Assembly (NCBI GenBank): GCA_035524375.1
Contig: DATKOZ010000033.1
Span: 26,842-90,841 of the forward strand
Direction of reading: 5' to 3'
DNA: 64,000 nt
Source: Candidatus Binataceae bacterium
GTDB lineage: Bacteria; Desulfobacterota; Binatia; Binatales; Binataceae
This document shows, piece by piece, positions 3,905 through 63,308 of the stretch. The notes beneath the pieces were generated by a model. The model worked only from the letters and a program-made list of their open reading frames with translations. It did not search any database and was not told the DNA's origin. Position 1 is the stretch's first letter. The number at the start of each line of letters is the position of its first letter. The translations under genes and the position numbers were made by a program.

Positions 3905-4415
3905 CTCGGCTTTGTTTGTACTTCGCAAAGGGCCCGCTTCCCCCTCCCTGCGATTGGATCGTCGCAGGACCGGAGCGATATGAAGCTCACCCGTCACCTA
4001 TCCGGAAAAATTGCAGGCCCTTATCGACAAAGCCGTGCGGGAAGTTCGTGCGGAGCGGAGCGCCGCGCCAAAAAGGGGGCGACAACCCCTGATTAGAAAG
4101 GCGCGACAGCACCCTCACCCACGCGGCTCTTGATTGGAGCAACCACCATGTCCTTGATGCCTGCGCGTCGCCATTTCACCTGCGCCTGCCCTCTCCCGCA
4201 AAAGCAGCGGGCGAGGGAACATTAGGAGGCCGAAGCCGTCGCGAAGTCACTCTCTCCGGTCTGGAATCAATTCGATCTTGCCGCGTCGGCCGCCTACGCC
4301 TGCCTCCACAGCTTCCAGCCGTTTGGCCGCGCCTTGATGCAATAAAACCCTTCAAACCCCGTCTTTGCCTAAATCCTGTTTCGTGATAATTCGATCTGTA
4401 GGGATAATCGAAGCC

Positions 4416-7040
4416 ATGGCAACGATATCGGCAAGTGATGGCGGACATCTGGATGGTCCGAATACGGGGCCGATCGCCAGTGGGCAATCATCCCTTCCCT
4501 CCCAATTCAACGCCGATGAACTGGACGCATCTGAAGCACTGCCGGTGATCCGGATTGGCATGCTTGCCGTGCTAATCGTGCAAGCAATCTTCGCGCTGTA
4601 TGTTCGTCATCCGCTGCCGGCGCAGGTGGCAAGGCAGGTATTTCCGGTAAAAGTGGCGCTGGGCGTGCCGATGGGGATTGTTTTCCTCCTCACATGGACG
4701 CCATGGTTCCGCCGTCATTGGAAGCCCGTAGCATGGATTGCAAATGCCTGGCTCTTCACCTTCGCCTGCTTGATCGTAAAAGTCGAGGGGGAATACGGGA
4801 TGCTCCCCGAGGGCGGAGACGAGAGTTCGCTTTTGAGCTTCGGACTGTCCGGTAATGAAAGCACATATGGGCCGCTGTTCTTAACCATCGTTATGATCGT
4901 GCTGATTCTGCTCGGGATCGGAATCATGTTTCCGTGGAACCGGCTCTGGCAAGGCACGCTGGAGGTCGCCGGGTTGGCCGCCCTGTATTTCACTTCGAGT
5001 GCGATCGACTGGGCCGGCTCAAGCAGCAACGAAGCGTTCGCCGTGCTGGCGAGCGTTGCTGTCGTGCATTGGTGTCATGAAGTTGCCGCCCGGAATCGGC
5101 GGCGGCTTACCGACATGATGGGCAAGCTCACGGCCGCGCGCGAGGAGGCGATGGCGGCGACGCGCGCCAAGTCCGAGTTCCTGTCCAATATGTCGCATGA
5201 AATCCGAACTCCGATGAACGCCGTTATCGGCATGTCGGAATTGCTCTCGTCAAGCTCGCTAAGTCCGGAACAGCGCCGCTACGTCGATATCATGAAGGCC
5301 AACGGCGACGCCCTCATCGATCTAATCAACGACATTCTCGACCTCGCGAAGATCGAAAGCGGCCGTTTGAGCCTGGAACGCGTCAACTTCGACCTTGAGG
5401 ACGTGATCGGCAAGCTGGGCGAGATGATGGGCATCCGGGCGCACGAAAAGGGACTTGAGCTTGCGATTCGTATCGCGCCCGATGTGCCGGTCAATCTGGT
5501 CGGCGATCCGCTCCGATTGCGGCAAATCCTGGTTAATCTTTTCGGCAACGCAATCAAATTCACCAGGCGCGGTCAGATTTCGCTGACCGTCGAACGCGCC
5601 GCGGCCGCCGACGGATTGCTACTGAAGTTCTCAGTCCGCGACACGGGCATTGGAATCCCTAAAGACAAGCTCGGCGACATCTTTTCCAGCTTCACGCAGG
5701 CCGACGCTTCCACAACCCGAAATTACGGCGGCACTGGACTCGGTCTTACAATAGTAAAGCGGCTGGTTGAACTTTACGGCGGCGAAATCAAGGTTGAAAG
5801 CGAACCCGGTACCGGCAGTTGCTTCATCTTTACCGCAAGGTTAGGGACTCAGGCCCCGGTGGCGGCGGCATCCGCGAAGCCGATCGTCGATTTGCGCGGC
5901 ATCAACGCTCTCGTTGTCGATACCCTCCCAATTAACCGAACCGTCGTGAAGGAAATCTTGGCGGCGGGTGGGGGCCGCGTCTCGGAAGCCGAAGGCCCTG
6001 CCCAAGCAGCCGGCGAATTAAGGCGCGCGGCGGACGCCGGCAACCCTTACCGCCTGGCCCTGATCGCTTGCCGGACGCGCGATACTGCCGGAATCGATCT
6101 AATTTCGAATTTGCGAAATTTGAACGGCCAAAGGGTCGGTGGCGGACCGGAAGTCGTTGCTATGCTCACCTCCGGCGACTTGGCCACGATGCCCGCGCGG
6201 CTTGGCGAATTCGGCGTTCGCGCCTATATCGTCAAACCGGTCCGGCGGTTGGAGTTGCTGCGTGCCGTCCGAACAGCGCTAACCGGCGCCAGAGAAGCTG
6301 ATGGTGTCGCTCGCGAAGCGGTGGCCGGGGCGGAATTGCCTCCGCTCAGGGTGCTGCTGGCCGACGATTCCCAAGACAACCGCATGCTGGTGAAGGCGTT
6401 TCTTGCTGGTAATCCCGTCCAAATCACTGCGGTGGAAAACGGGAGCGAGGCGGTCGACGTCTTCAAAAACGGCAAGTTTGACGTGGTCCTGATGGACATG
6501 CGGATGCCGGTCATGGACGGATGCACGGCGACCCGTACGATTCGCGAATGGGAACAGGAACACAAATTGGCCCGCACTCCGATCATCGCGTTGACTGCGT
6601 CCGCGCTTGAGGAAGCGGTCAAAGAATGCGTCGCCGCAGGATGCGATTTGCACGTCAGCAAACCGGTTCGGCGGCTCGGGCTGCTGACCGCGATCACCGA
6701 CGTGGTTAGATCGGCGCCTCGCTCCCAACCGGGAGACGGGAATAGGCCGACTGCCGTCGTCGACCCAGAATTGCGCGATTTGATTCCGGACTTCCTGCAA
6801 AGCAAACGGACCGACGTGGCCGCCGTTCTCGCCGCCCTCGAAAGCGGCGACTATGCGTTGGCCTCCACGGTCGGCCATCAATTGAAGGGTGAAGGCGGCT
6901 CCTATGGGTTTCCCGCCGTTACCGATCTGGGGCGGGATTTGGAAGAAGCAGCCGCAAGTGCCGATCGCGAGCGTGCGCTCCGCTTGACCCGGGAGATCGC
7001 CCAATATCTCGAGCAAGTGGAAGTCACCTACCGAGTATAG
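4416..7040 (+). CDS. Hybrid sensor histidine kinase/response regulator: polytopic membrane N-terminus, HisKA + HATPase_c, degenerate receiver, canonical receiver, C-terminal HPt
   Basis: Domains read from the translation:
- HisKA H-box: [17 protein letters not shown].
- ATPase G-boxes: DTGIGIP ... [21 protein letters not shown].
- REC2: [13 protein letters not shown] ... [13 protein letters not shown] ... SKP.
- HPt: [12 protein letters not shown].
REC1 lacks the acidic pocket (LVVDTLP, and ...[10 protein letters not shown] where the phospho-Asp is expected). Start chosen at ATG 4416 ([10 protein letters not shown]); the track ORF begins at 4365. Confidence 0.85.
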
Positions 7041-8183: not shown

Positions 8184-9224
8184 TCAGTGCCCACCTCCCT
8201 CGATGCCGACCTTTCCGGCAAAGCCGCGATAAGCGATGAACACGTAGATCGCCGCGATCGCCATGCCCGGAATAAACCACGCCAGTCCGACTTCGAGGGC
8301 ATGAGGAGGTGCAGCCGCCTGGAATATCGTCAGGCCGGCTTTGGGGTCTAGATTGGATGCCAATACATAGGGATAGATTCCAAAGGCCGTGCATGCCGCG
8401 ATACCCATCATGTACGCGCAGGAACATCCAAACGCGCCTGCTCCGCTTGCAGTGCGATTGAAATAGCGCGTCCCCAGAAGTCCGGTCAGGGCTGCCGCCG
8501 ACAGAACATAGCCCCACTGATGATGCGCAATCCGGTCGAGCAGTTGCGGCTGAATGACGGGACTAACGATTGCGACCAACACCGTGAAGATGAGGACCGG
8601 CCACCAGATTATCGCAGCAAGCCGGCGGCATCTCGCTTCCAGCTCGCCATCTGTCTTCACTGCGACCCACATCGCGCCGTGATGAGCCATCGCGAAGAAC
8701 CCGGCGATGCCGACCAAAATGGTAAACCAATCCAAAACGCCCGCATTCTTGCCAGGTAGCAAGTTGGTCCACAGCGGTAGAAAGAAATAACCGCTACTGT
8801 CGAGAGGAACCCCCCGAACCACGTTGCCGATCGCGACTCCGTAAAAGAGGGCCAACGCCGCGCTCGCGCCTGCAAAAACGACATCCCAGAGCGGCGACCA
8901 TACGGGGCTCTCGATTCGATTGCGAAACTCGATTGCGATGCCGCGGAAGATCAAGAGCCAAAGTACGATCATCAGCGGCAGATAAAATCCGCTGAAGCTT
9001 GATGCGTACAGCGTGGGAAACGCCATAAACAGGACCCCGCCCCCCGCAATGAGCCACACTTCATTGCCGTCCCATACCGGGCCGATCGAGCGAAGCACCG
9101 CCCGCCTCTCCGCTTCGGTTTGCGCGACCAGCAGATGGATGATGCCGGCGCCGATGTCGAAGCCGTCGAGCGAGGCGTATATCGCCAGCATCGCCGCGAC
9201 CGCCCAGAACCAGAACGTGGCCAT
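8184..9224 (-). CDS. cydB: Cytochrome bd ubiquinol oxidase subunit II
   Basis: Internal start MATFWFWAVAAMLAIYASLDGFDIGAGI... is the canonical CydB N-terminus. The track ORF (8184..9677) is an upstream over-extension that overlaps cydA. Confidence 0.85.
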   Translation of the reverse strand: MATFWFWAVAAMLAIYASLDGFDIGAGIIHLLVAQTEAERRAVLRSIGPVWDGNEVWLIAGGGVLFMAFPTLYASSFSGFYLPLMIVLWLLIFRGIAIEFRNRIESPVWSPLWDVVFAGASAALALFYGVAIGNVVRGVPLDSSGYFFLPLWTNLLPGKNAGVLDWFTILVGIAGFFAMAHHGAMWVAVKTDGELEARCRRLAAIIWWPVLIFTVLVAIVSPVIQPQLLDRIAHHQWGYVLSAAALTGLLGTRYFNRTASGAGAFGCSCAYMMGIAACTAFGIYPYVLASNLDPKAGLTIFQAAAPPHALEVGLAWFIPGMAIAAIYVFIAYRGFAGKVGIEGGGH

Positions 9225-9235
9225 CAGCGCCTCAT

Positions 9236-10567
9236 TCAGTCCGCTGCCGCGGTTGCAACCGGACCACGGCTTACTTCCTGGTAGATTAGGAACAGGAACA
9301 GCACCGCAAGGACGCTGTACATCCCAGCGAAACCGATCAGAGTAAACAGGACGTTGCCCTCCGATACATGCGGCGAGGCGGCCTGCTCCGTGCGCATCAG
9401 TCCATAGATGACCCACGGCTGGCGGCCAAGTTCCGCCGTCATCCAGCCGAAGGTTGTCGCAAGGTATGGAAACGGCGCCATCAACATTAGCCCCCACAAA
9501 AGCAGCCGCGACTCGAACAGCCATCCGCGCCACAGTGCGAACAGGGCGAACCCCAGCACCGCGATAAACATCGTCCCAAGCCCCACCATGTTGTGGTAGG
9601 CATAGTAGAGCAATGGAACATTGTCGGGCCATTGCTGGCGTGGGAATGTGTCGAGTCCCTTGACCTCCGCATTCCAACGCCGATAAGTCAAAATGCTCAG
9701 GACGTCGGGAACCTCAAGCGGATTATCGAGCGTCTGAGTCTGCATATCCGGCTGCCCGAGGATCGTAAGCGACGCGCCGTCTTCGGTATGAAACAGCCCT
9801 TCCATCGCGGCGAAGGAAGCCGGCTGATAGCGGACGACATTGCGGCCTTGCCCATCGCCCAGCGGATACATCATCAGGCACGACGCGATCGCGCCAGCAA
9901 TAACGCCGGTCCGCAGAAAAATCTTCGCCTGAACCTGATGGCGTCCGTCCAGGAGATAAAATGCGCCGGCGGCACTCATCGCGGTGCTTCCGGTAACGAC
10001 GGCGGCGCACATGTTATGCGGGTACTGCCAGAACAGCCACGGATTCGTCAGTAGGCTCCAAAAACTCTCCAACTCAATTGCGCCATCGGGCATGACGCGA
10101 TAGCCGACGGGATGCTGCATCCATGCATTGGTCGCGATGATGAAGAAACCCGACATCCACGAGCCTGCAAACACGAGAAATGCGGCCGCCCAATGAAGTC
10201 GGGGTCCGAGGCGCTTCTCGCCAAACAAAAATAGCCCTAAGAAACTGGACTCGAGAAAGAACGAAAATACGCCTTCCATCGCGAGCGTCTGCCCGATAAC
10301 GCCGCCCGATCTTTTGGAAAATGCCGCCCAGTTCGTCCCAAACTGAAACTCCATCGGGATGCCGGTGACGACACCTATCGCGAAATTAATCGCGAAGATG
10401 CGCGCCCAGAATCGCGCCGCCTGGTTGTATTTGTCGTCGCCGGTTCGGAGCGCGGCGGTTTTGAGGATCACGATAAGCAGCGCGAGGCCCATCGTGAGTT
10501 GCGGAAAGATGTAATGAAAAACGGCAGTGAAGCCGAAGAGAATGCGATCCGCCGTCAGTGCGTCCAT
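9236..10567 (-). CDS. cydA: Cytochrome bd ubiquinol oxidase subunit I
   Basis: 443-aa ORF MDALTADRILFGFTAVFHYIFPQLTMGLALLIV... with the CydA N-terminal heme-binding region and Q-loop. cydB starts 12 nt after its stop. Confidence 0.9.
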   Translation of the reverse strand: MDALTADRILFGFTAVFHYIFPQLTMGLALLIVILKTAALRTGDDKYNQAARFWARIFAINFAIGVVTGIPMEFQFGTNWAAFSKRSGGVIGQTLAMEGVFSFFLESSFLGLFLFGEKRLGPRLHWAAAFLVFAGSWMSGFFIIATNAWMQHPVGYRVMPDGAIELESFWSLLTNPWLFWQYPHNMCAAVVTGSTAMSAAGAFYLLDGRHQVQAKIFLRTGVIAGAIASCLMMYPLGDGQGRNVVRYQPASFAAMEGLFHTEDGASLTILGQPDMQTQTLDNPLEVPDVLSILTYRRWNAEVKGLDTFPRQQWPDNVPLLYYAYHNMVGLGTMFIAVLGFALFALWRGWLFESRLLLWGLMLMAPFPYLATTFGWMTAELGRQPWVIYGLMRTEQAASPHVSEGNVLFTLIGFAGMYSVLAVLFLFLIYQEVSRGPVATAAAD

Positions 10568-10592: not shown

Positions 10593-12884
10593 TTATTCCC
10601 TCTGGTCCGGAACCATTCTTACTTTGCCGGGTTTTGGGGAGCGCGTCCCCCGCCCTGCCGCGCCGGCCGCCGCACCGGTGGCGGCACCGGCTCCCTTGCG
10701 GCCGCGAGTCTTGATCAGGGGAGCGACGTCGTCGCCGAGGCCTTTGATCTTGTGCGCTTCAAGGCGGCCGCGCGCCGATTCGCTGGCGTGGCGATGGGCC
10801 GAGCCGGGAGGAGTCGAAGCCTTCGCGGCGCGCCGCTGCTCCGCCTCTTGGGCGGCCGTATCCATGCCAAATACCTTGCGCTCCAGCCGTTTAATTTTGT
10901 CGCGCAGCTCCGCCGCCCGTTCGTAATCAAGCGCCTCTGCCGCTTCCATCATCTCGCGCCGGAGATCCGTAATTCGATCCGGCAGATCGTGCGCGGGAAT
11001 CGCCTCTTCGTCCTTGGCCGGCTTGCCATCGACTTCGGGCACGATCGCCCATTCGGGCGAATACATTTCGACCAGGGACGCATCGATCGCTTTGACGATC
11101 GATTTCGGTGTTATCCCATGCTCGCGGTTGTATGCCAGCTGCTTGGCGCGCCGGCGGTTGGTTTCATCGATTGCCTGCTTCATCGAGCCGGTAACGGCAT
11201 CCGCATACATGATGACGCGGCCGTTGACGTTGCGGGCCGCACGCCCGATTGTCTGAATCAGCGAACGAGCCGATCTCAGGTAGCCCTCCTTGTCGGCATC
11301 GAGAATCGCAACCAGTGAAACTTCGGGCAGGTCCAGTCCTTCGCGCAAAAGATTGATTCCCACGAGCACGTCGAACTCGCCGCCGCGCAGGCTGCGGATA
11401 ATCTCGACGCGTTCGATAGTCTCGATGTCCGAATGGAGGTAGCGGACGCGCACGCCCAGGTCGTGGTAGTAGTCGGTCAGGTCCTCGGCCATCTTTTTGG
11501 TCAGGCAAGTGACGAGCACGCGCTCGGAGGCGGCGACCCGCTTGCGGATTTCTTCGAGGAGATCGTCGACCTGCGTTCCGGCCTTGCGGACTTCGATCTC
11601 CGGATCGATCAGGCCGGTTGGGCGAATCAGCTGTTCGACGACCAGCCCCTCGGATTTTTTCAGTTCGTAATCGCCGGGTGTTGCCGAGACGTACACGGCC
11701 TGGTTCACGTGCTGTTCCCATTCCTCGAAATTCAGCGGGCGATTATCCAGTGCCGAAGGCAATCGAAACCCAAAATCGACGAGCACCTGCTTGCGCGATC
11801 TGTCGCCGCGATACATCCCGCCCACCTGCGGAATCGTCACGTGGCTTTCGTCGATGAAGAACAGCGACTCCTTTGGGAAATAATCCAGCAGCGTTGGGGG
11901 AGCCTGCCCCGGCGCGCGGCCCGTCAAATGCCGTGAATAGTTTTCGATTCCGGTGCAGAAGCCCATCTCGGCCAGCAACTCAAGGTCGTACATCGTACGT
12001 TGTTCCAGGCGCTGTGCCTCGACTAGGCGGTTATCCTTGCGAAAGAATTCGAGCCGCTCCTTAAGTTCGGCGCGGATGTTTCGCACTGCGGTTTCCATCC
12101 GATCGGAGGTCGTCACATAGTGCGAGGCCGGGTAGATCGCGATGCTCTTCAAGCGGCGCAGCGACTTTCCCCGCAACGCATCGATTTCATGGATTGCCTC
12201 GACCTGGTCGCCGAAAAATTCGATCCGCACCGCCGCGCGCTCTTCGTAGGCGGGAAAAATTTCAATTGTGTCGCCGCGCACGCGGAAAGTGCCACGATGA
12301 AAATCGTAATCGTTGCGCTGGTAGTGGATGTCCACCAGCTTGCGCAGCACCCGATCTCGTTCGATCGTCTGGCCTTCCTCCAGAAACACCAGCATCTCGA
12401 AGTACACTTCCGGCTCGCCCAAGCCGTAGATGCAAGAAACCGACGCGACGATCAGGACATCGTTGCGCTCGAGCAACGCCTTGGTAGCGGAATGGCGCAG
12501 CTTGTCGATCTCGTCATTGATGCTGGAATCTTTCTCGATGTAGGTATCCGTTGACGGGACGTACGCCTCCGGCTGGTAGTAGTCGTAGTACGAGACGAAG
12601 TACCGGACCGCATTTTCGGGAAACAAGCTCTTGAACTCGTTGTAAAGCTGCGCTGCGAGCGTCTTGTTCGGCGCCATCACCAGCGCAGGCCGATTTATCT
12701 GCGCGATGACATTAGCCATCGTAAAGGTTTTTCCGGAACCGGTGACACCCAACAGCACCTGATGCGGCACTGCGGCCCGAACGTTCTTTACGATCGCTTC
12801 GATAGCGGCGGGCTGGTCACCCTCGGGCTGATAGCCCGATACCAGTTGAAAGGTTCCACCCCTGCCGCGCGATTGTGACAGCAT
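10593..12884 (-). CDS. uvrB: Excinuclease ABC subunit B with an ~85-aa basic Ala/Gly/Lys-rich C-terminal extension
   Basis: Helicase motifs ([12 protein letters not shown]), a beta-hairpin region, the UVR domain ([22 protein letters not shown]), then a tail ...[39 protein letters not shown]. Confidence 0.9.
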
Positions 12885-13140
12885 GATTAAAGCCCCACTC
12901 TAGCAGGGTTTTCAGTCCGTTCCGAATTGGCGCGTATCCCAAATCGTCTAATCCCCAGGACAGAATGAGGAGCCGCATATGGAAAACGAACGAAAAATGC
13001 CCAGTAGAACAGGCCTCAAGAATGCAATAGATTGCGTGGTAGCGATGGCATGCGGGTTGCTGTGGTGGGTAGGTGTAAGAGCAGCCTCGGATGCGACTGC
13101 GGATCGGCGGATTTAGGCGGGGAAGAGTCGGGATCGGGAT

Positions 13141-13620
13141 ATGAAAATCGCGCGGGTTATGGCGGCGTCGGCGGTAATCGCATCCGCGATGACGGCAACT
13201 TCTCTGGCGCAAGAAATCCCATTGAAACCAGCGGCCGCTACTCCGGCCAGCAGTCCATCGTCGCCGGCTGTGCCAAAGGTCACCCATCGCGAGCGCGAGG
13301 AATACAAGCGATTTCTTCGCCGCCGCCCAAAGTTGAAAGCAGAACTGGAAAGGAACCCAAACCTGATCTACGACAAAGATTTTCTGCTAAAGAACCAGGA
13401 TTTCAGCGATTTCCTCGACGCACATCCAAACTTCAGAAAGGGCGTGCAACCGGGAACGGAATCGAGTTCTTCGACGGTGAACGAGCGCGAACAGCGCCGA
13501 CGGGAGAGAATCAAGCGGCGCGAAAAGCAGCTTTCCAACATGACCAAATCACATCACGAACAACCGCCACCAGCTTCGCCGGCTTCCGCCAGCGAACCCG
13601 CCCCCGTGCCGACGCACTAG
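13141..13620 (+). CDS. Secreted protein, paralog 1 of a small 'HP/NP-repeat' family (uncharacterised)
   Basis: Signal peptide MKIARVMAASAVIASAMTATSLAQE, then the module EYKRFLRRRPKLKAELERNPNLIYDKDFLLKNQDFSDFLDAHPNFRKG, then a charged low-complexity tail. It shares the module with the ORFs at 13642, 14349 and 62934. Confidence 0.7.
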   Translation: MKIARVMAASAVIASAMTATSLAQEIPLKPAAATPASSPSSPAVPKVTHREREEYKRFLRRRPKLKAELERNPNLIYDKDFLLKNQDFSDFLDAHPNFRKGVQPGTESSSSTVNEREQRRRERIKRREKQLSNMTKSHHEQPPPASPASASEPAPVPTH

Positions 13621-13641
13621 CAGACCGACTGGAATGCGCAA

Positions 13642-14238
13642 TTGAGAAATCGCTGCCTTCAATCCATCGTCGCCGGCGCAATACTATCGTTGTCGCTGAC
13701 ACCGCCTGCGCATGCACAGGGTGCGCCGCCGGGTTTCGGCATCCTCATGCGTGCGCAAAAACTTCATATGCTGCACATGGTTCCGGTACCTGAGCCGGTG
13801 GATCCCTTTCAAAAATATTACAACGAGCATCCGGATTTCGGAAAAGAGCTTCAGGAATTTGTCATTACATACAAAAAGACCAATCCAAAATCATACGATC
13901 AAGCGCAGAACAAATATTTGCTGCTCAATCCAAAGTGGCGAGCGCGCCAACCACGGGAGCTAAACGAGTTTCTGCAACGCCACCCCGACGCCTGGAAGGC
14001 CGCACTCTCCGCAGTGCAGTACTACTGGACCCCAGAGTTCTCAAAGTTTATGGATGACAAGCCGAAGCTGGCAGCGGAACTGAGGAACAACCCTGAATTG
14101 ATGTACGACGACAAATGGCTCGCAAAAAACCCCAAAGTCAAAGCATTTCTGCGTACGCATCGAGACGTGCTTTGCGACGTTTATTCATCGCCCCACTTCT
14201 CAGGCGCCAAAGCTGCGGATTCGATGCGAGCGCATTGA
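13642..14238 (+). CDS. Secreted protein, paralog 2 of the HP/NP-repeat family
   Basis: TTG start at 13642 (no in-frame ATG upstream). Signal peptide MRNRCLQSIVAGAILSLSLTPPAHAQ. Modules: YNEHPDFGKELQEF, LNEFLQRHPDAWKAAL, FMDDKPKLAAELRNNPELMYDDKWLAKNPKVKAFLRTHRDVL. Confidence 0.7.
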   Translation: MRNRCLQSIVAGAILSLSLTPPAHAQGAPPGFGILMRAQKLHMLHMVPVPEPVDPFQKYYNEHPDFGKELQEFVITYKKTNPKSYDQAQNKYLLLNPKWRARQPRELNEFLQRHPDAWKAALSAVQYYWTPEFSKFMDDKPKLAAELRNNPELMYDDKWLAKNPKVKAFLRTHRDVLCDVYSSPHFSGAKAADSMRAH

Positions 14239-14348
14239 CCGAGCGTGTATCAGGAGAATTTGTGTTACGTAATAACGGATAACTACCGAGCGGAACGCAC
14301 AATTCATCGCGTCGCCCGGCCAAACAGGAGGCCCAGCGGGAAAAACTT

Positions 14349-15077
14349 ATGAAACGAGGCAAACTTTTCGCAATCATCGCGATTTTGCTTTTGGCAACCA
14401 CGGCGCCGGCAATGGCTCAATACCCGGCTCCACACGGAGGATATTCTTCGATTCCATATTTCGCGAATTTGCCGGAAAGCAAAGATTTCCGGATGTTCGC
14501 GGAGCAGCATCCCGACATGCTTCAGCAATTGCAGAGCAAGCCGGGTGAAATTTTCAATCCCAATTGGCGATCACAGCATCCCTACTTGGAGCAATATTTC
14601 CAGAATCATCCGCAGACTTGGTATGCAATTCGCAACCAAGCGCCAAATTATTGGGATCCGAATTTCCGCAATTTCATGAATGGCCAGAAGAAGGCGGGCG
14701 CTGAGCTACTTGCCAATCCCGACCTAATCTATAATCGGGCTTGGATTTCGAGCCATCCCCGGGTTGCGGAATATTTGAAGACTCACCCTCAAGTGTTACG
14801 CACCATCGAAGTTAAGGCCGGCCGGCCTGAATATCCCATCCCTCCTTCAGCTCCTCATGGCTGGGGTGACTATGACGATCATCATGAATGGCACGACTAC
14901 GGCTGGTGGCAGGAGCATCATCCCAATTGGGCACGCAAGCATCATCCTGAGTGGTATGCCAACAAAGAGGCAATTGAGGAGCATCACCACGAGATGCAGC
15001 AGGAACACCATCACGATCATGGGCACGACAATGATCATCACGATCATCATGGCGACCATGGGCACGATCACCACTAA
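14349..15077 (+). CDS. Secreted protein, paralog 3 of the HP/NP-repeat family, with an extreme His-rich C-terminal tail (putative metal binding)
   Basis: Signal peptide MKRGKLFAIIAILLLATTAPAMAQ. Modules: FAEQHPDMLQQLQSKPGEIFNPNWRSQHPYLEQYFQNHPQ and FMNGQKKAGAELLANPDLIYNRAWISSHPRVAEYLKTHPQVL. Tail: HHEWHDYGWWQEHHPNWARKHHPEWY...EEHHHEMQQEHHHDHGHDNDHHDHHGDHGHDHH. Confidence 0.75.
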   Translation: MKRGKLFAIIAILLLATTAPAMAQYPAPHGGYSSIPYFANLPESKDFRMFAEQHPDMLQQLQSKPGEIFNPNWRSQHPYLEQYFQNHPQTWYAIRNQAPNYWDPNFRNFMNGQKKAGAELLANPDLIYNRAWISSHPRVAEYLKTHPQVLRTIEVKAGRPEYPIPPSAPHGWGDYDDHHEWHDYGWWQEHHPNWARKHHPEWYANKEAIEEHHHEMQQEHHHDHGHDNDHHDHHGDHGHDHH

Positions 15078-15090
15078 TAAATGAGCTCCG

Positions 15091-15124
15091 TCCGGCGGGG
15101 ATACTAAAGCGGGCCCCCGCCGGA
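15091..15124 (+). terminator. GC-rich hairpin downstream of the 14349..15077 gene (10-bp perfect stem TCCGGCGGGG / CCCCGCCGGA); no U-tract
   Basis: Inverted repeat read directly from the sequence, 14 nt after the stop. Factor-independent terminators without U-tracts are common in high-GC genomes. Confidence 0.4.
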
Positions 15125-15219
15125 CAAGCGGCAGTCGGAAGACTGAACCTCAACCTGGGCCAGTAATTCGCTGCAGGATAACCATCACGAAACAAGTTCG
15201 TAACTTTCCCCGGGGCCTG

Positions 15220-15249
15220 TTGCTTTTTACCGCCTGATATCACTATATT
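15220..15249 (+). promoter_or_regulatory. Candidate sigma70-like promoter for the OmpA-like gene (TTGCTT, 18-nt spacer, TATATT)
   Basis: Hexamers at 15220-15225 and 15244-15249. An RBS (GAGGAG, 6-nt spacer) precedes ATG 15343. Confidence 0.3.
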
Positions 15250-15342
15250 TCCCGGTCAATATGGACCTTTGGCGGCCTGCCAGCGTAACAGTGGAGCCGG
15301 CCAGGGTTGGGCGAAAACTTGCATGTGGTGAGGAGCAGCTTG

Positions 15343-16047
15343 ATGAAAGGAAAGCCGGGATTGGCCAAATCGATAGCCGCGATTGCGGGTGCCGCCCTTT
15401 TAACGGGCGGATTGACCGGTTGCGCGTCGATGCGCCAGCCCCGCGAATGGGGCAAATGCACTGTGATGGGCGCACTGGCGGGTGCTGCGGCCGGTGCGGC
15501 CAGTGGCATCGTGATTGCCGACAACGCCCATGGCAGCGGCAGCAGCTCAACCGACGCCCGCGCATTCGGCGGAATCGGCGGCGCAGCGGCAGGCGCCCTA
15601 ATCGGCGGCTTGACCGGACATTTCCTGTGCGACGAAATTATTCCACCACCGCCGCCGCCTCCTCCCCCGCCACCACCACCTCCACCGCCTCCTGCCGAGC
15701 CGGTAAAGCAAAAGCTCGTCCTGCGAGGCATCCATTTCGATTTTAACAAGTACGATATCCGGCCCGGCGATGCTGCTGTGCTAGATGAAGCCGCCGGCAC
15801 CCTCAAGGCTAATCCGACCGTGACGGTGAACGTCAACGGCTACTGCGACGCAATCGGAAGCGTCGAGTACAACCTCAAGTTGTCAGACAAGCGCGCTGGC
15901 GCGGCGGTCGATTACCTTGTAAAACAGGGCATCCCGGCCACTCAGCTGATTCCGCACGGCTTCGGCAAGACCGATTTTGTGGCGACCAATGATACCGACG
16001 AAGGCCGGGCTCAGAACCGGCGCGTAGAGCTGGTACCGGTGCAATAA
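15343..16047 (+). CDS. OmpA-family lipoprotein: lipobox, Gly-zipper region, 19-residue poly-Pro linker, C-terminal OmpA peptidoglycan-binding domain
   Basis: MKGKPGLAKSIAAIAGAALLTGGLTGC (lipobox), Gly-rich stretches (GALAGAAAGAASG, GGIGGAAAGALIGG), PPPPPPPPPPPPPPPPPPP, then the OmpA_C signature NGYCDAIGSVEYNLKLSDKRAGAAVDYL...RAQNRRVEL. Confidence 0.85.
   Translation: MKGKPGLAKSIAAIAGAALLTGGLTGCASMRQPREWGKCTVMGALAGAAAGAASGIVIADNAHGSGSSSTDARAFGGIGGAAAGALIGGLTGHFLCDEIIPPPPPPPPPPPPPPPPPAEPVKQKLVLRGIHFDFNKYDIRPGDAAVLDEAAGTLKANPTVTVNVNGYCDAIGSVEYNLKLSDKRAGAAVDYLVKQGIPATQLIPHGFGKTDFVATNDTDEGRAQNRRVELVPVQ
15644..15693. repeat. Low-complexity CCN trinucleotide tract encoding the poly-Pro linker (poly-Gly on the opposite strand)
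   Basis: ccaccaccgccgccgcctcctcccccgccaccaccacctccaccgcctcct. It explains the spurious 197-aa Gly-rich antisense ORF 15243..15836. Confidence 0.8.
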
Positions 16048-16124: not shown

Positions 16125-16628
16125 ATGTCAAATCAAGGAAAATCAATCATGAAAGGGCTGGGCGGCGGCGCAATGATCGCAGCCCTGCTGTTCGTGTCGG
16201 GATGCGGCTGCACGTTGACGCCGCCGGCACCCCCGCCGGCTCCGGTTGCCGCCGCTGCGCCACCACCACCACCACCGGCCCCGATGCAGCAAAAAATCGT
16301 GCTGCGCGGAGTTCATTTCGATTTCAATATGTGGAACATTCGCCCCGGCGATGCCGCGGTGCTGGACGAAGCCGTACCAACGCTCAAGGCGAATCCCGGC
16401 GTGATGATTCACGTCAATGGCTATTGCGACATCATCGGCTCAGTGGAGGCCAACCAAAAGTTGTCGCAGGCCCGCGCCGGTTCGGTTACGGACTACCTGA
16501 TGAGACAGGGCTTGTATCCCAGCCAGTTCCTGCCTCGCGGCTATGGTAAGACCGACTTCGTCGCGACCAACAAGACCGAGGAAGGCCGCGCCCAGAACCG
16601 CCGGGTCGAGTTGGTACCTATCCAGTAA
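16125..16628 (+). CDS. OmpA-family lipoprotein, tandem paralog (Pro/Ala-rich linker + OmpA_C domain)
   Basis: GGGAGGG RBS 9 nt upstream of ATG 16125. Lipobox LLFVSGC. Linker TPPAPPPAPVAAAAPPPPPPAP. The OmpA_C domain is ~75% identical to that of 15343..16047 (NGYCDIIGSVEANQKLSQARAGSVTDYL...RAQNRRVEL). Confidence 0.85.
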   Translation: MSNQGKSIMKGLGGGAMIAALLFVSGCGCTLTPPAPPPAPVAAAAPPPPPPAPMQQKIVLRGVHFDFNMWNIRPGDAAVLDEAVPTLKANPGVMIHVNGYCDIIGSVEANQKLSQARAGSVTDYLMRQGLYPSQFLPRGYGKTDFVATNKTEEGRAQNRRVELVPIQ

Positions 16629-16753: not shown

Positions 16754-17311
16754 ATGTTGCCGGGGAGGTTCATAGCGGCATTCGGTGCCGCCGCACTTGT
16801 AATCGCAATATCGATACCCTCCACTTCCGCTCTCGCTCAGACCGCCGCTTCCGTTAATCCCGACGCTGCGCAACCAGCGGCCCCATCCGCCGCAAAGAAG
16901 ACGCTGCGCCAGCGCGTAAAACAGAAGGTAAAGGCGCTGGTCGAAAGCTTTACCCCGACCCGGGTCGAAATGGACCGCGAGTTCAAAAAGGCCGCTGCGC
17001 TGTTCCCGCACTTTTGCGACCATTGGCAGCAGGATTTGCGCGATCGCGAGACCAACAACCTGTCCCAGCTCACTTTCACAGATAAGGACGGGTACAAGGT
17101 CGCGACCTACACCGGCTACGGAAAGATCGAGTCCTGCGAGGCGCACCAATCGAAGGATGGCTTCGCGATCGGCAAGCTCGCGTACAAGGAATATGTCTAC
17201 TACATCACGGGTAAGAGCCCCGCTGAGGCCCGCCATGCCGCTCCCAAGCCCGTCAGCACAACCTATACGACGGAGATCTTTCGCTGGGACAAGGGCCAAT
17301 GGTTCTACTAG
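16754..17311 (+). CDS. Secreted hypothetical protein (signal peptide; Lys-rich N-terminal region)
   Basis: MLPGRFIAAFGAAALVIAISIPSTSALAQT signal. It is the last gene of the same-strand envelope run and is followed by a strong terminator. Confidence 0.6.
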   Translation: MLPGRFIAAFGAAALVIAISIPSTSALAQTAASVNPDAAQPAAPSAAKKTLRQRVKQKVKALVESFTPTRVEMDREFKKAAALFPHFCDHWQQDLRDRETNNLSQLTFTDKDGYKVATYTGYGKIESCEAHQSKDGFAIGKLAYKEYVYYITGKSPAEARHAAPKPVSTTYTTEIFRWDKGQWFY

Positions 17312-32602: not shown

Positions 32603-32733
32603 TTAGCCGTTCTTAGCTCACCCCTTTCCCCTTCTGAGACCATACCTTCGGGGGGCTTGGACGCGCGAGCGGCGCGATTGAACGGCCGTGCTGGGAGACC
32701 TCGTGCAAATTGCCGTCGATGAAGGTTGATGTG

Positions 32734-35700
32734 ATGAAGAGTACTGAAGGACGGGTCCGGCTTGGAACGATCGCGATCTTTAGCGCGGTCGCAATGGTCA
32801 TATTTGCTACCGCGATTCTGACTACACCGCGCGCCCAGCAGAATGCAGTCGCGGCCGCGTCAGCAACCCCTAGTTTGCCTTTTAGACCGTTTCTGCCGCC
32901 CGCAATCGCTCCCGACGGGTCAGCCCGAGTCACAACTAGCACAACCGCCAGCGCCAATATCGTATTAAATTTTCCAACTTCCGTGACTGCGGGCGATATT
33001 TGTGTCGCGGGTATCAATTTCAGTTCGTCCAGCGGTGCCGGCAACACCCGCACGGTGAATACTGTTCCTACTGGATGGACTCTGGTCCGGACCGATACCG
33101 CCACCGGTACGAATAATGGCACCAATGCCAACCAGCAGGGCTTCATTTACTGGTATAAGAACGGCGGCGCGAGCGGGACCGAGGGAGGCACAACGGCCAC
33201 TTGGGTATTGAATGCGAATTACGCCGATTTGGTCGGATGGATCCAATGCTTCAAAGGAGTCGATGCCAACGTGCCGATCGATTCGCTGAATCCAACCGGA
33301 AGCGGCGTCAACGGCGGCAGCGCCAACGTCGGAACTGTCACCGTTCCAGCGCTGGGTACGCTAAACCGCGCCGGTGACACCGTTATCCTGAACTGCTCGA
33401 TCGCCAACGGAGCCGGCACATACACAAGCCCGGCGATTCCGGTAGGTGTGTTTACGACGCAGAGCGTCGGCACGGCCGGAGCCGGAATCGTAGCGGGTAC
33501 GCACGCTGACGCCGCCGCATATACGGGAGTTGATGCGACCACGACCGCTCCCGCCGCACAGGCGTGCACCAACAATGGCACCAACGGCAGAATGGTCGGC
33601 GAACAGATCGCCCTGCAGCCGTCGGTTACGCCCGGAGCTTGCACTGCGCTCAACTACGGCGACTTCAGTTCCACCTCGGGGCTAACCTTGCTCGGCAGCA
33701 CGATCCAGAACGGCAATGCGCTGGAGTTGACGCCGGCCAGCGGCAACCAGCTAGGGGCACTATGGGGCTCCAGTCAAATCGATGTTGCGGACGGATTTAT
33801 CGCGAGTTTCGCATTTTCACTCACTAATCCCTCGACCCCTCCGGCCGACGGCATCACTTTCACGATTCAGAACGAGGCTCTGACCGCGATCGGCGATACT
33901 TTGGCCGGCGGCGGCGGCATCGGTTATAACGATATAACCGACGCACTCACCGTCGAGTTCGATGTATTCAATAACGGCGTGGGCGGAACTTGCCCCACTT
34001 GCTATAACGACCCCAACGCAAATCACATCGCAGTACAAAGTTGCGGCACCGCCGCCAACGGGCCAAACCCGGCCTGCCAACTGGGCATTCAGGCGACGCT
34101 GCCCAATACGATGTCGGACGGCGCCGTGCATACCGCCACGATCGTATACGATCCGGGCACGTTGGAAATCTATTATGACAACGGCGCAACGCCGGTACTT
34201 CAGGTGCCGGTTGATTTGGCAACCCTCCTGAGTTTGACCGGTGGCAACTCGGCGTGGGTTGGATTCACTTCTTCGACCGGTGGGTCGTTTGAACAGACCA
34301 ATCTGTTCAATTTCTTTGCTGCCCAGGGACAGGAATGCGCCACTCCGACTCCGACGGCAACTTCGACTACAACGTTGACACCGTCGATTACACGGACTCC
34401 AACCACTACAGCGACGGCTTCTGCAACACGGACGCCGACCGCGACAATCACCCGGACGCCGACGGCTACCGTTTCGCCAACGACCACGGCAACCAGGACC
34501 GCGACGCTTTCTCCGACTTCCACAGTCACCGCCACATCGACGCTTACGCGGACAGCCACATCAACGGCTACTGCGACTTCGACCGCTACAGTGACCGCAA
34601 CTCTATCGCCGACCATTACTACTACGGCGACAATTTCGCCGACCTCAAGTATCACCGCGACTTCGACCACGACCGCGACGCCAACAGCCACTTCAACATC
34701 GACGCCGCTGGTAAACATTTCGGTTACGCCGACGCCCGTCGCTTTCCCAACGGTAACGATTGGCACTCCGCAGTCTCAGTTCGTTGTCATTACGAATTCC
34801 GATCCTACGAATCCGCTTGTCTTTAGTTCTTTCAATACGACTGACACGACCGCGACCGGAAGTACGCCAAACGAATGGAGCGTGACCGGAGCCGTCGATG
34901 GCGCCATCCCGGCATGTGTTGCGGGAACACCTGTGCCGCCGGGAACTTCCTGCGCTCTGCAGGTTACGCTGTCTCCAAACGCAGCCAACGGAGATGACGT
35001 CACGGTTACCGGTAATCTGACGCTGAACGGCAACATCTCGCCGGGCGGCTCAACCACAATTTCGCTGCATGGGACTGGGCAATGGGCCAACGTCAGCGCG
35101 ACCGCCTCGCCCACGCCGCTCGCGTTCGGAACGGTTCAGGTTGGGACTCCTCAGACTAAGACTTTGACCATCACCAACACCGACGCCACCAATCCGCTCT
35201 ACATCACCTCGCTGGGCGCATCCGACACCACTGCCGGCTACTCTGGCCCCGATGAGTTCTCAATTGTCGGTGGAACTTGCAGTGCGGCGACCGATGGGTC
35301 CAATCCGGTGGCTCCGGGCGGCTCATGCACAGTAGTCGTGCAGCTAGCACCGAATGCCGCCAACGGCGACGGGGTGGGCGTCACAGGCCAACTAGCGGTG
35401 AATGGCAACCTGACGGGCGGACCGTTGGATGTCTCAATGACGGGAACCGGCCAGTGGCCTTCAGTCGCCGCGACCGCCTCGCCTACACCGATCGCATTCG
35501 GAACTGTGCAGGTTGGGACTCCGCAGACTAAGACCCTGACCATCACGAATACCGACGCAACCAATCCGCTCTACATCACATCGCTGGGAGCATCGGATAC
35601 GACCGCCGGCTACACCGGTCCCAATGAATTTTCGATCGTGGGCGGTACCTGCACGGCGGCAACCAACGGTTCCAATCCGGTACCTCCGGGCGGCTCGTGC

Positions 35701-37413
35701 ACGGTGATCGCGCAACTCTCGCCCAATACGGTCAATGGCAATGGCGCAAGCATTACCGGCCAGTTGTCCGTGAACGGGAATCTGACCGGCGGACCGCTCA
35801 ATGTGGCGATGACCGGAACCGGCCAATGGCCCAATACCACCGTATCGCCCAGTTCCAATCCGTTGAACATTGGAACGGTTTTCGTCGGAACTACGGGAAC
35901 CGGCATACTGACGATTACGAACACCGGAACAAATCCGCTGTTCATCACGAGCACCGGAACTACCGACACCACCAGTGGCTATACTGGAACCAACGAGTGG
36001 GGAGTGACCAGCGGAGGAATTAATCCGTGCCCCGTGGCTCCTGCCAGCATTCCCCCGGGAAGCTCTTGTACTCTCGTCGTGAGCTTGGATCCATCGGTAT
36101 CGAACGGCGACAACACGACCATCACCGGAACCCTCACCATAGGTGATAATACGACCGGCGGAACGACGACGGTCAACCTGACGGGGACCGGCGAATGGCC
36201 GCAGGTCGTCGCATCTCCATCTCCTACTCCGCTCGCCTTCGGCGCAGTAAACGTCGGGGCTCCAGTGACTAAAACACTGACGATCAAAAATGAAGATGCT
36301 ACCAACCCGCTATACCTCACCTCGATAACGCCTACCGATACCACCGCTGGCTACACGGGTCCGGATGAATTCTCCGTCACCGGAGGCACCTGTAGCACTG
36401 CCACCGATGGCTCCAATCCGCTTGCTCCGGGAGCCTCCTGCACGGTTCAGGTGACGCTGTCTCCTCAACCGATCAATGGCAATGGGACGAGCATCACCGG
36501 CCAGTTGTCGATAAATGGCAACATCACCGGCGGGCCCCTGAACGTATCCATGACTGGGACCGGCACCGGCATAACGACTGTAAGCGTGAGCCCGGCTTCG
36601 TGCTTTGCGGGCGCCGTGGTGGAGGGAAACACGTCAACGTTCTGCGTATTCACGGTGAGCAACACCGGCTTTGTGAATCATATGCTCGTGAGCAACATTG
36701 CCCTCGACGACTCGCTGGATTCCGGGGTGTTCTTCACCGATTGCCAGGCGCCGGGCGGAACCCCCGCACAGTCGCAATGCTCAATCAATGTGGCGTTCAC
36801 TCCACAGACCCTTGGGCCGTACACGATCCACATGAATATCACCGATAACGCGTTGTCCAGTCCGCAAACAGTGACAGTAACGGGGACTGGAACGATGCCC
36901 CCAAACACCACCGACACGCTGCTGCCGAATCCCTTGGACTTCGGCGGCGCGCCGGTAGCGCAGCCGACGGAGGCATTCCTGACAGTAACCAACACCGGAT
37001 TTACCAATCCGTTGGTGCTGCAGACGTTGAACGTTACGGACACGACGCCGGGTTACACGGGCGCCAATGAATTTGCATTGGTGCCTGCGGATTCGAACTG
37101 TCCGACTGCGCCCGCGGGGCTGGGACCAGGCGCAAGCTGCATATTGGCAATTAACCTGACTTCGGATGCGTCAAACGTTGACCAGACGATCACCGGAACG
37201 CTGACGGTGACTGACAACACGGCTGGTAGTCCGCAGACGGTGAGCCTGACCGGGTACGGAGTGTCGGGGATAACACCGGATGGAGATTGCTACACCGCTT
37301 CGAGCGGGGCGTGCGATTCGACGCAATCCAATCCGGGCTTCTCCGGCCAGTCGTGCCTGATAGACTCCGGAACCTGCACGAATACTGGAGGCCCAGGGTG
37401 CCAGTGCCAGTAA
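32734..37413 (+). CDS. Giant secreted surface protein / putative lectin adhesin: signal peptide, N-terminal region of unknown fold, legume-lectin-like domain, Thr/Ala/Ser-rich linker, 7 tandem Ig-like (choice-of-anchor-D type) repeats, Cys-rich C-terminus
   Basis: Start chosen at ATG 32734 (MKSTEGRVRLGTIAIFSAVAMVIFATAIL).
- Lectin_legB-like motifs: ASFAFSL...DGITFTIQNE, LTVEFDVFNNG, NHIAVQS, AWVGFTSSTGG.
- A ~115-residue Thr/Ala/Ser-rich linker (TPTPTATSTTTLTPSITRTPTTTATA...TSTSTP).
- Repeats with the motif ...FG.V.VG....K.LTI.N....PL.I.S.......F.....C......PG.SC...V.L.P...G.
- C-terminal GDCYTASSGACDSTQSNPGFSGQSCLIDSGTCTNTGGPGCQCQ. Confidence 0.85.
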   Translation: MKSTEGRVRLGTIAIFSAVAMVIFATAILTTPRAQQNAVAAASATPSLPFRPFLPPAIAPDGSARVTTSTTASANIVLNFPTSVTAGDICVAGINFSSSSGAGNTRTVNTVPTGWTLVRTDTATGTNNGTNANQQGFIYWYKNGGASGTEGGTTATWVLNANYADLVGWIQCFKGVDANVPIDSLNPTGSGVNGGSANVGTVTVPALGTLNRAGDTVILNCSIANGAGTYTSPAIPVGVFTTQSVGTAGAGIVAGTHADAAAYTGVDATTTAPAAQACTNNGTNGRMVGEQIALQPSVTPGACTALNYGDFSSTSGLTLLGSTIQNGNALELTPASGNQLGALWGSSQIDVADGFIASFAFSLTNPSTPPADGITFTIQNEALTAIGDTLAGGGGIGYNDITDALTVEFDVFNNGVGGTCPTCYNDPNANHIAVQSCGTAANGPNPACQLGIQATLPNTMSDGAVHTATIVYDPGTLEIYYDNGATPVLQVPVDLATLLSLTGGNSAWVGFTSSTGGSFEQTNLFNFFAAQGQECATPTPTATSTTTLTPSITRTPTTTATASATRTPTATITRTPTATVSPTTTATRTATLSPTSTVTATSTLTRTATSTATATSTATVTATLSPTITTTATISPTSSITATSTTTATPTATSTSTPLVNISVTPTPVAFPTVTIGTPQSQFVVITNSDPTNPLVFSSFNTTDTTATGSTPNEWSVTGAVDGAIPACVAGTPVPPGTSCALQVTLSPNAANGDDVTVTGNLTLNGNISPGGSTTISLHGTGQWANVSATASPTPLAFGTVQVGTPQTKTLTITNTDATNPLYITSLGASDTTAGYSGPDEFSIVGGTCSAATDGSNPVAPGGSCTVVVQLAPNAANGDGVGVTGQLAVNGNLTGGPLDVSMTGTGQWPSVAATASPTPIAFGTVQVGTPQTKTLTITNTDATNPLYITSLGASDTTAGYTGPNEFSIVGGTCTAATNGSNPVPPGGSCTVIAQLSPNTVNGNGASITGQLSVNGNLTGGPLNVAMTGTGQWPNTTVSPSSNPLNIGTVFVGTTGTGILTITNTGTNPLFITSTGTTDTTSGYTGTNEWGVTSGGINPCPVAPASIPPGSSCTLVVSLDPSVSNGDNTTITGTLTIGDNTTGGTTTVNLTGTGEWPQVVASPSPTPLAFGAVNVGAPVTKTLTIKNEDATNPLYLTSITPTDTTAGYTGPDEFSVTGGTCSTATDGSNPLAPGASCTVQVTLSPQPINGNGTSITGQLSINGNITGGPLNVSMTGTGTGITTVSVSPASCFAGAVVEGNTSTFCVFTVSNTGFVNHMLVSNIALDDSLDSGVFFTDCQAPGGTPAQSQCSINVAFTPQTLGPYTIHMNITDNALSSPQTVTVTGTGTMPPNTTDTLLPNPLDFGGAPVAQPTEAFLTVTNTGFTNPLVLQTLNVTDTTPGYTGANEFALVPADSNCPTAPAGLGPGASCILAINLTSDASNVDQTITGTLTVTDNTAGSPQTVSLTGYGVSGITPDGDCYTASSGACDSTQSNPGFSGQSCLIDSGTCTNTGGPGCQCQ
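34711..37260 (+). repeat. Seven tandem ~360-370-bp coding repeats inside the giant gene; units 2 and 3 (35086-35457, 35458-35829) are roughly 85% identical at nucleotide level (by-eye estimate)
   Basis: Unit boundaries are approximate: 34711, 35086, 35458, 35830, 36202, 36571, 36895. Long identical runs are shared by units 2 and 3 (ccgctctacatcac, ggttgggactcc.cagactaag). Confidence 0.7.
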
Positions 37414-62933: not shown

Positions 62934-63308
62934 ATGAAGAAACTACCCGGTCTGCTAACGGCGGTGACATTCGTCGCCATTTCGGCAACTGGCCTATTCG
63001 CCCAGGAAAGCGGCTCGCAGCCACAGGTTAATGGCACGGTTGTTCGCGGCAATACGACGATAGTGTTTGAGGCTGCCAATACCAGCGACTTGCCGATGGA
63101 CCTGTATAAAATTTGGGGCGAATTCGAAAAATCGCATCCAGACATCGAACACGACCTTGCGTATAACCCTAAACTACTCGACGACGCCAACTACCTGCAT
63201 AAACATCCGGATTTCGCCAAATTGCTCGACGAAAATCCCGAACTGTTCAAAGAAATGAGGCGCAATCCGGGCAACTTCGCCGCCATCCCGCCCCGGCCGG
63301 GCGAATGA
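62934..63308 (+). CDS. Secreted protein, paralog 4 of the HP/NP-repeat family
   Basis: Signal peptide MKKLPGLLTAVTFVAISATGLFAQ. Module: EFEKSHPDIEHDLAYNPKLLDDANYLHKHPDFAKLLDENPELFKEMRRNPGNF. The track ORF starts at 62850 in non-coding leader. Confidence 0.65.
   Translation: MKKLPGLLTAVTFVAISATGLFAQESGSQPQVNGTVVRGNTTIVFEAANTSDLPMDLYKIWGEFEKSHPDIEHDLAYNPKLLDDANYLHKHPDFAKLLDENPELFKEMRRNPGNFAAIPPRPGE

Follow-up and report, generated by a model that had tools for sequence, protein, structure and literature searches.

The subject of this report is a set of four genes found in a 64,000-nucleotide stretch of DNA from a Candidatus Binataceae bacterium (GenBank assembly GCA_035524375.1, contig DATKOZ010000033.1, positions 26,842 to 90,841 of the forward strand), hereafter the window. 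Three of them, genes A, B and C, follow one another on the same strand and the fourth, gene D, lies 48 kb away. All four are real genes for Sec-exported, all-alpha periplasmic proteins that carry one or two copies of a 52-residue module with recurring His-Pro and Asn-Pro pairs, and this module is the hallmark of a large family of secreted tandem-repeat proteins, which is uncurated and has no Pfam or NCBIfam model of its own. The closest known family to the module is MHB, in which its membership is not established. Secreted small helical His-rich binding proteins are a kind already known, and the family is possibly a remote branch of the MHB superfamily; what is new is that the modules stand in tandem arrays, that the members resembling gene C have a Trp/His repeat and a His tail, and that a sigma54 promoter is conserved in Binataceae.

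At the sequence level, the repeat is an ungapped 52-residue module, F..F...HP....L..L..NP.L.....W...HP.V..YL..HP.V, of which A and D have a single copy each and B and C two (Table 1). The preliminary description of this DNA had recognized the recurring HP/NP module and given it a length of about 20 residues and two to four copies per protein; the motif holds, and its size and copy number are better described as 52 residues and one or two copies. The specificity of the module was assessed with a hidden Markov model (HMM) built from 90 modules of other organisms and run on the 448 window open reading frames (ORFs) of at least 50 residues. Four of these were matched, namely C (1.4e-30), B (9.1e-24), A (2.7e-17) and D (3.1e-17), and no other window ORF appeared at E<=10. 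The fourth copy proposed at 62934 is thereby confirmed by a profile built without window sequences. In the AlphaFold2 (AF2) prediction of mature C, the predicted local distance difference test score (pLDDT) reaches 85-95 across the modules, each of which folds into six short helices, and the helices of the module are N-capped by His/Asn/Asp-Pro. Column frequencies were obtained from 585 modules, a set in which P22 is invariant since the modules were filtered on it. The conserved columns are position 7 (Phe 89%, Tyr 9%), 8 (Leu 89%), 11 (His 92%), 12 (Pro 54%), 18 (Leu 87%), 21 (Asn 57%, Asp 29%), 24 (Leu 83%), 34 (His 83%), 37 (Leu 88%), 41 (Leu 85%), 44 (His 77%, Asn 16%), 45 (Pro 84%), 54 (Asn 55%) and 55 (Pro 87%). 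No residue of the family is better conserved than H11, which outranks its own following Pro, and the caps at positions 21 and 54 are occupied by Asn/Asp, not by His. This fixed H-N-H-H-N pattern at five caps, together with the conservation of H11 above that of its Pro, argues for a specific role of three His residues per module. Judging from the alignment, capping by itself would hardly explain such a position-specific His/Asn pattern, and the His residues look functional.

The extent of the family was determined by an exhaustive hmmsearch with a six-module profile against 1.84 billion representatives (clusters at 50% identity), which returned at least 1086 cluster representatives at E<=1e-3, 445 at E<=1e-10 and 114 at E<=1e-30. 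The module is therefore not the private repeat that it had been taken for. Among the matches listed, the proteins measure 180-760 residues and contain 2-9 modules each, and the best 150 proteins hold 615 modules spaced by about 73-88 residues. A signal-peptide-like N-terminus is present in 176 of the 201 fetched family proteins that start with Met. Word-indexed homolog searches returned only C itself when C alone was the query, and just 26 short proteins, nearly all nameless, with the unit alignment A3. Few members bear a name; these belong to Candidatus Binataceae, Candidatus Binatus and Terriglobia and are labelled "hypothetical" or, in JGI, "phage-related", the JGI name of the P0002 cluster being "phage-related protein". 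It was also observed that the multi-repeat relatives P0002, P0005 and P0013 pass the gathering cut-offs of Pfam families to which they are unrelated (BRK, DHC, GST_C_3, LIAS_N and others), as the weak matches of the single repeats are summed, and such summed matches are likely the source of misleading automatic names like the JGI one. A dedicated model would mend the annotation of these at least 1086 representatives, whose hosts, Binatota and Terriglobia, are abundant and barely cultured soil lineages.

At the level of the individual genes, direct reading of the four ORFs identifies an n-h-c signal peptide in each, with a basic n-region, a hydrophobic h-region and a small-x-small cleavage site (A, MKIAR...SLA/Q; B, MRNR...AHA/Q; C, MKRGK...AMA/Q; D, MKK...LFA/Q, the stroke marking the cut), and no lipobox Cys in any of A-D. 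The mature products of A and B have isoelectric points of 10.1 and 9.3, respectively. In a comparison within a four-sequence database, B and C behave as colinear paralogs (33% identity over 165 residues, E 5e-26), A shares 40% identity over 53 residues with the second module of B, and D matches less well. Hence, the tandem array of exported paralogs stands as first described in its ORFs, coordinates, strand, signal peptides and paralogy. The lower GC content relative to the flanks, initially noticed by eye, is also borne out, with values of 0.51-0.57 for genes A-D versus 0.59 for the window, and GC at third codon positions (GC3) of 0.55-0.63 versus 0.67-0.79 in ten neighbouring and housekeeping genes checked. 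In the NCBI record of this Candidatus Binataceae metagenome-assembled genome (MAG) all four genes are labelled hypothetical protein (VMU16_06100, _06105, _06110 and _06325 for A to D), with protein entries HUO04753.1 for A and HUO04798.1 for D. Public records place the start of B at three different codons, TTG 13642 (198 aa, JGI), TTG 13690 (182 aa, NCBI) and ATG 13747 (163 aa, ENA). Among them, only TTG 13642 yields a complete signal peptide, which can be aligned with that of C. Over gene A, the ENA gene call reports instead an out-of-frame ORF of 247 residues at 13032-13793 (+).

Gene C is the conserved gene of the group and belongs to a subfamily with an architecture of its own, consisting of a signal peptide, one or two modules, one or two Trp/His repeats and a His/Glu-rich tail ending in HGHGHD. 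The consensus of the Trp/His repeat is GDYDxxHxWHDxxWWxxHHPxWxxxHHPEW; it is conserved, often in two copies, across the C-like subfamily and the Binataceae orthologs, and no Pfam model covers it. Of the fetched relatives, 20 have a tail comparable to that of C. With the Binatus ortholog P0173 as query, the GTDB species genomes yielded 12 loci, all of them from Binataceae or "uncultured delta proteobacterium" MAGs. The gene order of the window is found in 11 of the 12, with uvrB (-), a single C-like gene, 1-5 genes for OmpA-like lipoproteins and a homolog of a 185-residue secreted protein, followed in the syntenic loci that reach far enough by two acyl-CoA dehydrogenase genes (-). Three module genes between uvrB and the OmpA genes are a feature of the window genome only, the related Binataceae loci having one C-like gene at this position. 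As module A1 is nearest to B2, B is colinear with C and a single gene is present elsewhere, A and B are local duplicates that have lost the tail. Gene C is accordingly the ancestral, conserved gene and the ortholog of the single locus gene in other Binataceae, and A and B are lineage-specific duplicates that were added between the promoter and C and have also lost several conserved His residues; with these losses and their basic isoelectric points, they may be sub-functionalised or decaying copies. The array is not the multi-component "uncharacterised periplasmic system" that it had suggested, because related genomes have a single C-like gene here. The locus offers instead a small and clean example of expansion, in which the ancestral gene and its conserved promoter have been separated by two duplicates that are now losing conserved residues. 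The C-like orthologs of three loci from long-read MAGs (L015, L017 and L018) look frameshifted or truncated, as does the uvrB gene of L015, which probably reflects assembly indel errors and not pseudogenisation.

Regarding the regulation of these genes, the element TGGCAT-N5-TTGCT is conserved in the aligned intergenic regions between uvrB and the module gene, and it conforms to the sigma54 -24/-12 consensus with GG-N10-GC spacing. The exact element is present in 8 of the 11 syntenic Binataceae loci, lying on the same strand and 57-73 nt (in one locus 150 nt) ahead of the module gene, and two further loci contain near-matches with one and two mismatches. These eight exact matches are the only ones in the 13 loci (152 kb) scanned. 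In the window, TGGCATGCGGGTTGCT is the sole match to TGGCAY-N5-TTGCW in 64 kb. Since 19% of window shuffles yield at least one match to the sigma54 pattern, that match is not significant when taken alone, and because of this the case for a promoter is built on the conservation across loci. No sigma54 element was detected upstream of B, C, D or the OmpA genes, a scan for sigma70-type promoters gave no sites, and an Rfam scan of 12700-15400 for leaders and riboswitches gave no match. Genes A and B are separated by 21 nt and B and C by 110 nt, and the + strand shows no terminator-like site from A to C, the sites reported elsewhere being irrelevant to the A-C operon. After gene C, the 68-nt stretch 15078-15145 folds with a minimum free energy of -34.2 kcal/mol (z = -3.76 versus shuffles) into a GC-rich hairpin that no T tract follows, and which is likely the transcript end of A-B-C. 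The upstream element, the short gaps devoid of terminators and this hairpin together lead us to infer a sigma54-dependent A-B-C operon, and the conserved promoter provides a testable regulatory entry point in Binataceae. The same intergenic region (12885-13045 in the window; aligned in loci L008-L018) displays further conservation, namely the block ATTTGCTAGGATA, which precedes TGGCAT by some 25 nt, and the blocks AACCGAAAT and GCACCTTTT; these could be an activator site, an IHF site or a divergent uvrB promoter.

As for the function of these proteins, the reading that we favour, with a probability somewhat short of one half, is that the C-like proteins bind or buffer a His-ligated ligand in the periplasm and are inducible, being under sigma54 control and resembling ZraP in their way of working. 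According to this proposal, A, B and C would be transcribed as a single enhancer-activated, sigma54-dependent operon ending at the hairpin after C, and their exported products would act in the periplasm once induced. The ligand would most likely be a divalent transition metal, with haem as the alternative, and binding would take place through the position-specific His residues of the module plus, in C, the Trp/His repeat and the His tail; the conservation of this repeat and of the very His-rich tail across the C-like subfamily is in line with a His-ligated ligand. ZraP is a zinc-binding periplasmic chaperone whose expression is sigma54-dependent and controlled by ZraR (PMC4987338). The likeness lies in the small size, the all-helical periplasmic nature, the His-rich segments (metal-binding in ZraP, putative here) and the sigma54 promoter, whereas there is no sequence relationship between them and no divergent two-component or enhancer-binding protein genes of the zraSR type stand beside the A-B-C locus. 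The early remark that the module is not the LTXXQ motif of CpxP/Spy/ZraP proved correct, as the motif is absent from A-D by direct reading and neither the Pfam LTXXQ/Metal_resist models nor any other CpxP/Spy/ZraP model in Pfam or NCBIfam matches them. The resemblance to ZraP is consequently one of working mode, drawn by analogy, and not of family membership.

Several observations weigh against this proposal. C1 is the only window module with all three conserved His residues; position 11 is Arg, Lys and Gln in A1, B2 and C2, respectively, and position 34 is Asn in A1 and B2. Thus, A and B may bind a ligand different from that of C, or none, and for the module proteins as a whole the ligand is a predicted one. 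The ten large window ORFs scanned include no enhancer-binding protein (Sigma54_activat), and metal- or haem-transport genes are not conserved beside the genes of the family, either inside or outside Binataceae. Should the conserved His residues and the Trp/His and His-rich tail be ligands of metal or haem, the family could represent a major component of periplasmic metal/haem handling. A further-reaching version of the proposal, which we consider rather unlikely, holds that the module would be a novel ligand-binding domain distinct from true MHB, and that, combined with the Trp/His repeat and the His tail, it would constitute an unrecognised class of sigma54-inducible periplasmic metal (or tetrapyrrole) buffers, widespread in soil Binatota and Acidobacteriota, whose multi-module members would serve as high-capacity periplasmic or extracellular sponges.

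The relationship of the module with named families has been addressed at several levels. When proteins A-D were compared with all Pfam and NCBIfam models, no model reached its cut-off. The best sub-threshold matches of window proteins were to Pfam MHB, PF16525 ("Haemophore, haem-binding"; curated cut-off 27.4 bits), and to NCBIfam TIGR04529 ("hemophore-related protein"; 32 bits), with PF16525/TIGR04529 scores of 16.3/20.7 bits for B (TIGR04529 E 5.9e-4) and 13.9/14.8 bits for C, and no match for A and D. Some multi-module relatives exceed both cut-offs (P0013, 74.2/66.3 bits; P0002, 65/75.4 bits), scores that were rejected as proof of membership given that the same proteins pass those of BRK, DHC and GST_C_3. 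For this reason it is more informative to consider single units, 96 of which, each of 80 residues, were scanned one by one. TIGR04529 matches 59 of the 96 at E<=0.01 (best 2e-8) and the other NCBIfam models no more than 2 units each, while Pfam MHB matches 42, XPC-binding 15 and UBQLN1 11, so that MHB/hemophore-related is the named family that recognises single modules most often. Alignment of the unit alignment A3 with Rv0203, the Mycobacterium tuberculosis prototype of this family, whose sequence agrees with PDB 3MAY, gave a probability of 60.9% (E 8.2e-5) in hhalign. Haem ligands proposed for Rv0203 are Tyr59, His63 and His89 (PMC9846915). In the hhalign pairing, the module segment F7-L8-x-x-H11-P12 is set opposite Y59-L-D-S-H63-P of Rv0203; His63 pairs with H11, present in 92% of family modules and in only 3 of the 6 window modules, Tyr59 with position 7 and His89 with position 40, which is Phe/Tyr, so two of the three haem ligands are not conserved in the module family.

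The module and Rv0203 have in common that both are secreted, small, all-alpha domains with the motifs (Y/F)-L-D-x-H-P and L-x-x-x-F-x-x-N-P-x-V, and that the haem ligand His63 falls on the most conserved residue of the module. In contrast, the module family forms tandem arrays of 1-9 copies in Binatota and Terriglobia, whereas MHB is a single domain of Actinobacteria; the Cys pair of Rv0203 is missing from the module, module positions 22-36 at its centre have no counterpart in Rv0203, and the C-like members add the Trp/His repeat and the His tail. STI1/XPC-binding-type domains were included as a specificity control and not as a proposed relative. They share with the module the short amphipathic helices parted by Asn-Pro caps and match it weakly by HMM, and they differ in being eukaryotic and cytosolic, in having no conserved His pattern and in matching fewer modules than MHB. 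This control limits the weight of the MHB link, since the XPC-binding domain of RAD23B reaches 40.2% (E 2.9e-4) against A3, a small margin below Rv0203. Moreover, in the PDB sequences 3MAY is found only at E 1.5 with the module profile A3 and at E 0.8 with the relative P0013. With these values, the sub-cut-off window scores and the near-equal control, the link to MHB is weak. The PDB sequence search gave no real match for B and none for the module profiles A2 and A3, and a Foldseek search of the predicted fold against the PDB gave 0 matches and did not retrieve 3MAY. A literature search on PF16525, TIGR04529 and "hemophore-related" yielded mycobacterial typing papers only and none on this repeat family. 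The original statement that the module maps to no named domain holds in that A-D have no confident family match covering the module, the scores being below cut-off, and needs amending in that a weak mapping to PF16525/TIGR04529 does exist. From the sequence comparisons, the chance that the module is a remote relative of the MHB/hemophore-related domain is roughly even.

It could be argued that these proteins are true haemophores or haem shuttles like Rv0203, whose modules would bind haem for delivery to an uptake system, with the multi-module relatives as high-capacity scavengers. This explanation would account for the first rank of MHB/hemophore-related among the families matching single modules and for the sub-threshold matches of B and C, for the position of F7-L8-x-x-H11-P12 opposite the Tyr59-His63 segment with H11 as the most conserved residue of the family, and for secretion, which is shared with Rv0203. 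It is nevertheless quite improbable: the Tyr59 equivalent is Phe in most modules and that of His89 is aromatic too, half of the window modules lack H11, and neither Cys of Rv0203 has an equivalent. Genes for a TonB receptor, a haem ABC transporter or a haem oxygenase are missing from the surroundings of the members examined, the predicted fold does not retrieve 3MAY, and hhalign favours Rv0203 over an unrelated control domain by a small margin. A different view, to which we give a higher yet still low probability, dispenses with the ligand and sees in these proteins an envelope scaffold, a spacer or a holdase-type chaperone working with the OmpA-like peptidoglycan-binding lipoproteins, so that His/Asn-Pro would be mere helix caps and the His tail incidental. 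The block formed by a C-like gene, 1-5 genes for OmpA-like lipoproteins and the secreted 185-residue protein, retained in 11 of 11 Binataceae loci, would agree with such a role, and so would a module copy number of 1-9, typical of structural or avidity repeats, the replacement of cap His by Asn, Gln, Lys or Arg in window modules, and the resemblance of single modules to the small helical client-binding domains of the STI1/XPC-binding type (15 and, for UBQLN1, 11 of the 96 units; 40% in hhalign); sigma54 control is also compatible with an envelope-stress response. However, caps alone leave aside the position-specific His/Asn pattern with H11 conserved above its own Pro, and an incidental tail is at odds with the maintenance of both the Trp/His repeat and the very His-rich tail throughout the C-like subfamily. 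In addition, a strong hairpin and a 265-nt gap part the OmpA genes from C, and OmpA genes are not neighbours of family members outside Binataceae.

There is finally the idea that A-D are an artefact, either non-genes arising by compositional chance or sequences of phage origin, in favour of which one could cite the ENA call of another frame over gene A, the JGI "phage-related protein" label on the P0002 cluster and the GC3 values below those of neighbouring genes. It is effectively refuted by the synteny of the gene in 11 species, by the window-free family profile that matches exactly the four A-D frames and by the lack of any PHROGs match for A-D; the hundreds of homologs with signal peptides and the absence of phage genes nearby point in the same direction.

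Table 1. Position of the genes, modules and regulatory elements in the window
Feature	Position	Strand	Description
Sigma54-type element	13046-13061	+	TGGCATGCGGGTTGCT (GG-N10-GC); 80 nt upstream of the gene A ATG
Gene A	13141-13620	+	159 aa; signal peptide, single module (aa 52-103), basic low-complexity Ser/Pro-rich tail
Module A1	13294-13449	+	A aa 52-103; ungapped 52-aa alignment, 38% identity to B2
Gene B	13642-14238	+	198 aa, TTG start; signal peptide, two modules (aa 54-125 and 130-181), no His tail
Module B1	13801-14016	+	B aa 54-125, with a 20-aa insertion
Module B2	14029-14184	+	B aa 130-181
Gene C	14349-15077	+	242 aa; signal peptide, two modules, Trp/His repeat, His-rich tail
Module C1	14478-14633	+	C aa 44-95; family-conserved His are H54, H77 and H87
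Module C2	14655-14810	+	C aa 103-154; AF2 single-unit model with core pLDDT 90-93 and six short helices
Trp/His repeat	14862-14957	+	WGDYDDHHEWHDYGWWQEHHPNWARKHHPEW; C aa 172-203; predicted helical, pLDDT ~81-83
His/Glu/Asp-rich C-terminal tail	14958-15074	+	16 His in the last 40 residues of C, end HGDHGHDHH (direct reading)
GC-rich stem-loop	15090-15125	+	after gene C; folded 68-nt stretch 15078-15145
Gene D	62934-63308	+	124 aa counted from the second ATG; signal peptide, single module (aa 58-109); acidic, stand-alone
Module D1	63105-63260	+	D aa 58-109; aligned with the other modules

Various features of the surrounding region complete the picture of the locus. The vicinity of OmpA-like or metal-related genes, which had been put forward as worth following in homologs, is maintained for OmpA-like genes within Binataceae only; the loci of distant family members have no common neighbours, none of them OmpA-like and none seen tied to haem or metal transport. 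In the window, the OmpA-family lipoproteins are two paralogs encoded at 15343-16047 and 16125-16628 (+), about 70% identical and each with a lipobox and an OmpA_C domain. The one at 15343-16047 contains a Gly-zipper-like segment and a run of 17 prolines, and the one at 16125-16628 a shorter Pro/Ala-rich linker; across the syntenic Binataceae loci the copy number of OmpA-like genes varies between 1 and 5. They are followed at 16754-17311 (+) by the gene for the 185-residue secreted protein, which has no Pfam, NCBIfam or PDB-sequence match and whose homologs (56-65% identical) come after the OmpA-like genes in every syntenic Binataceae locus of sufficient length. Upstream of uvrB, the window encodes a hybrid histidine kinase at 4365-7040 (+), with HisKA, HATPase_c, receiver and Hpt domains, and the cydAB cytochrome bd oxidase at 8184-10567 (-), a stretch that is not conserved in the Binatus locus (L002). 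Farther downstream, the largest ORF of the window, of 1567 residues, occupies 32710-37413 (+), and an ORF at 49996-51285 (-) combines an N-terminal TadE/G-like domain with a VWA domain, which suggests a Flp/Tad pilus-associated protein.

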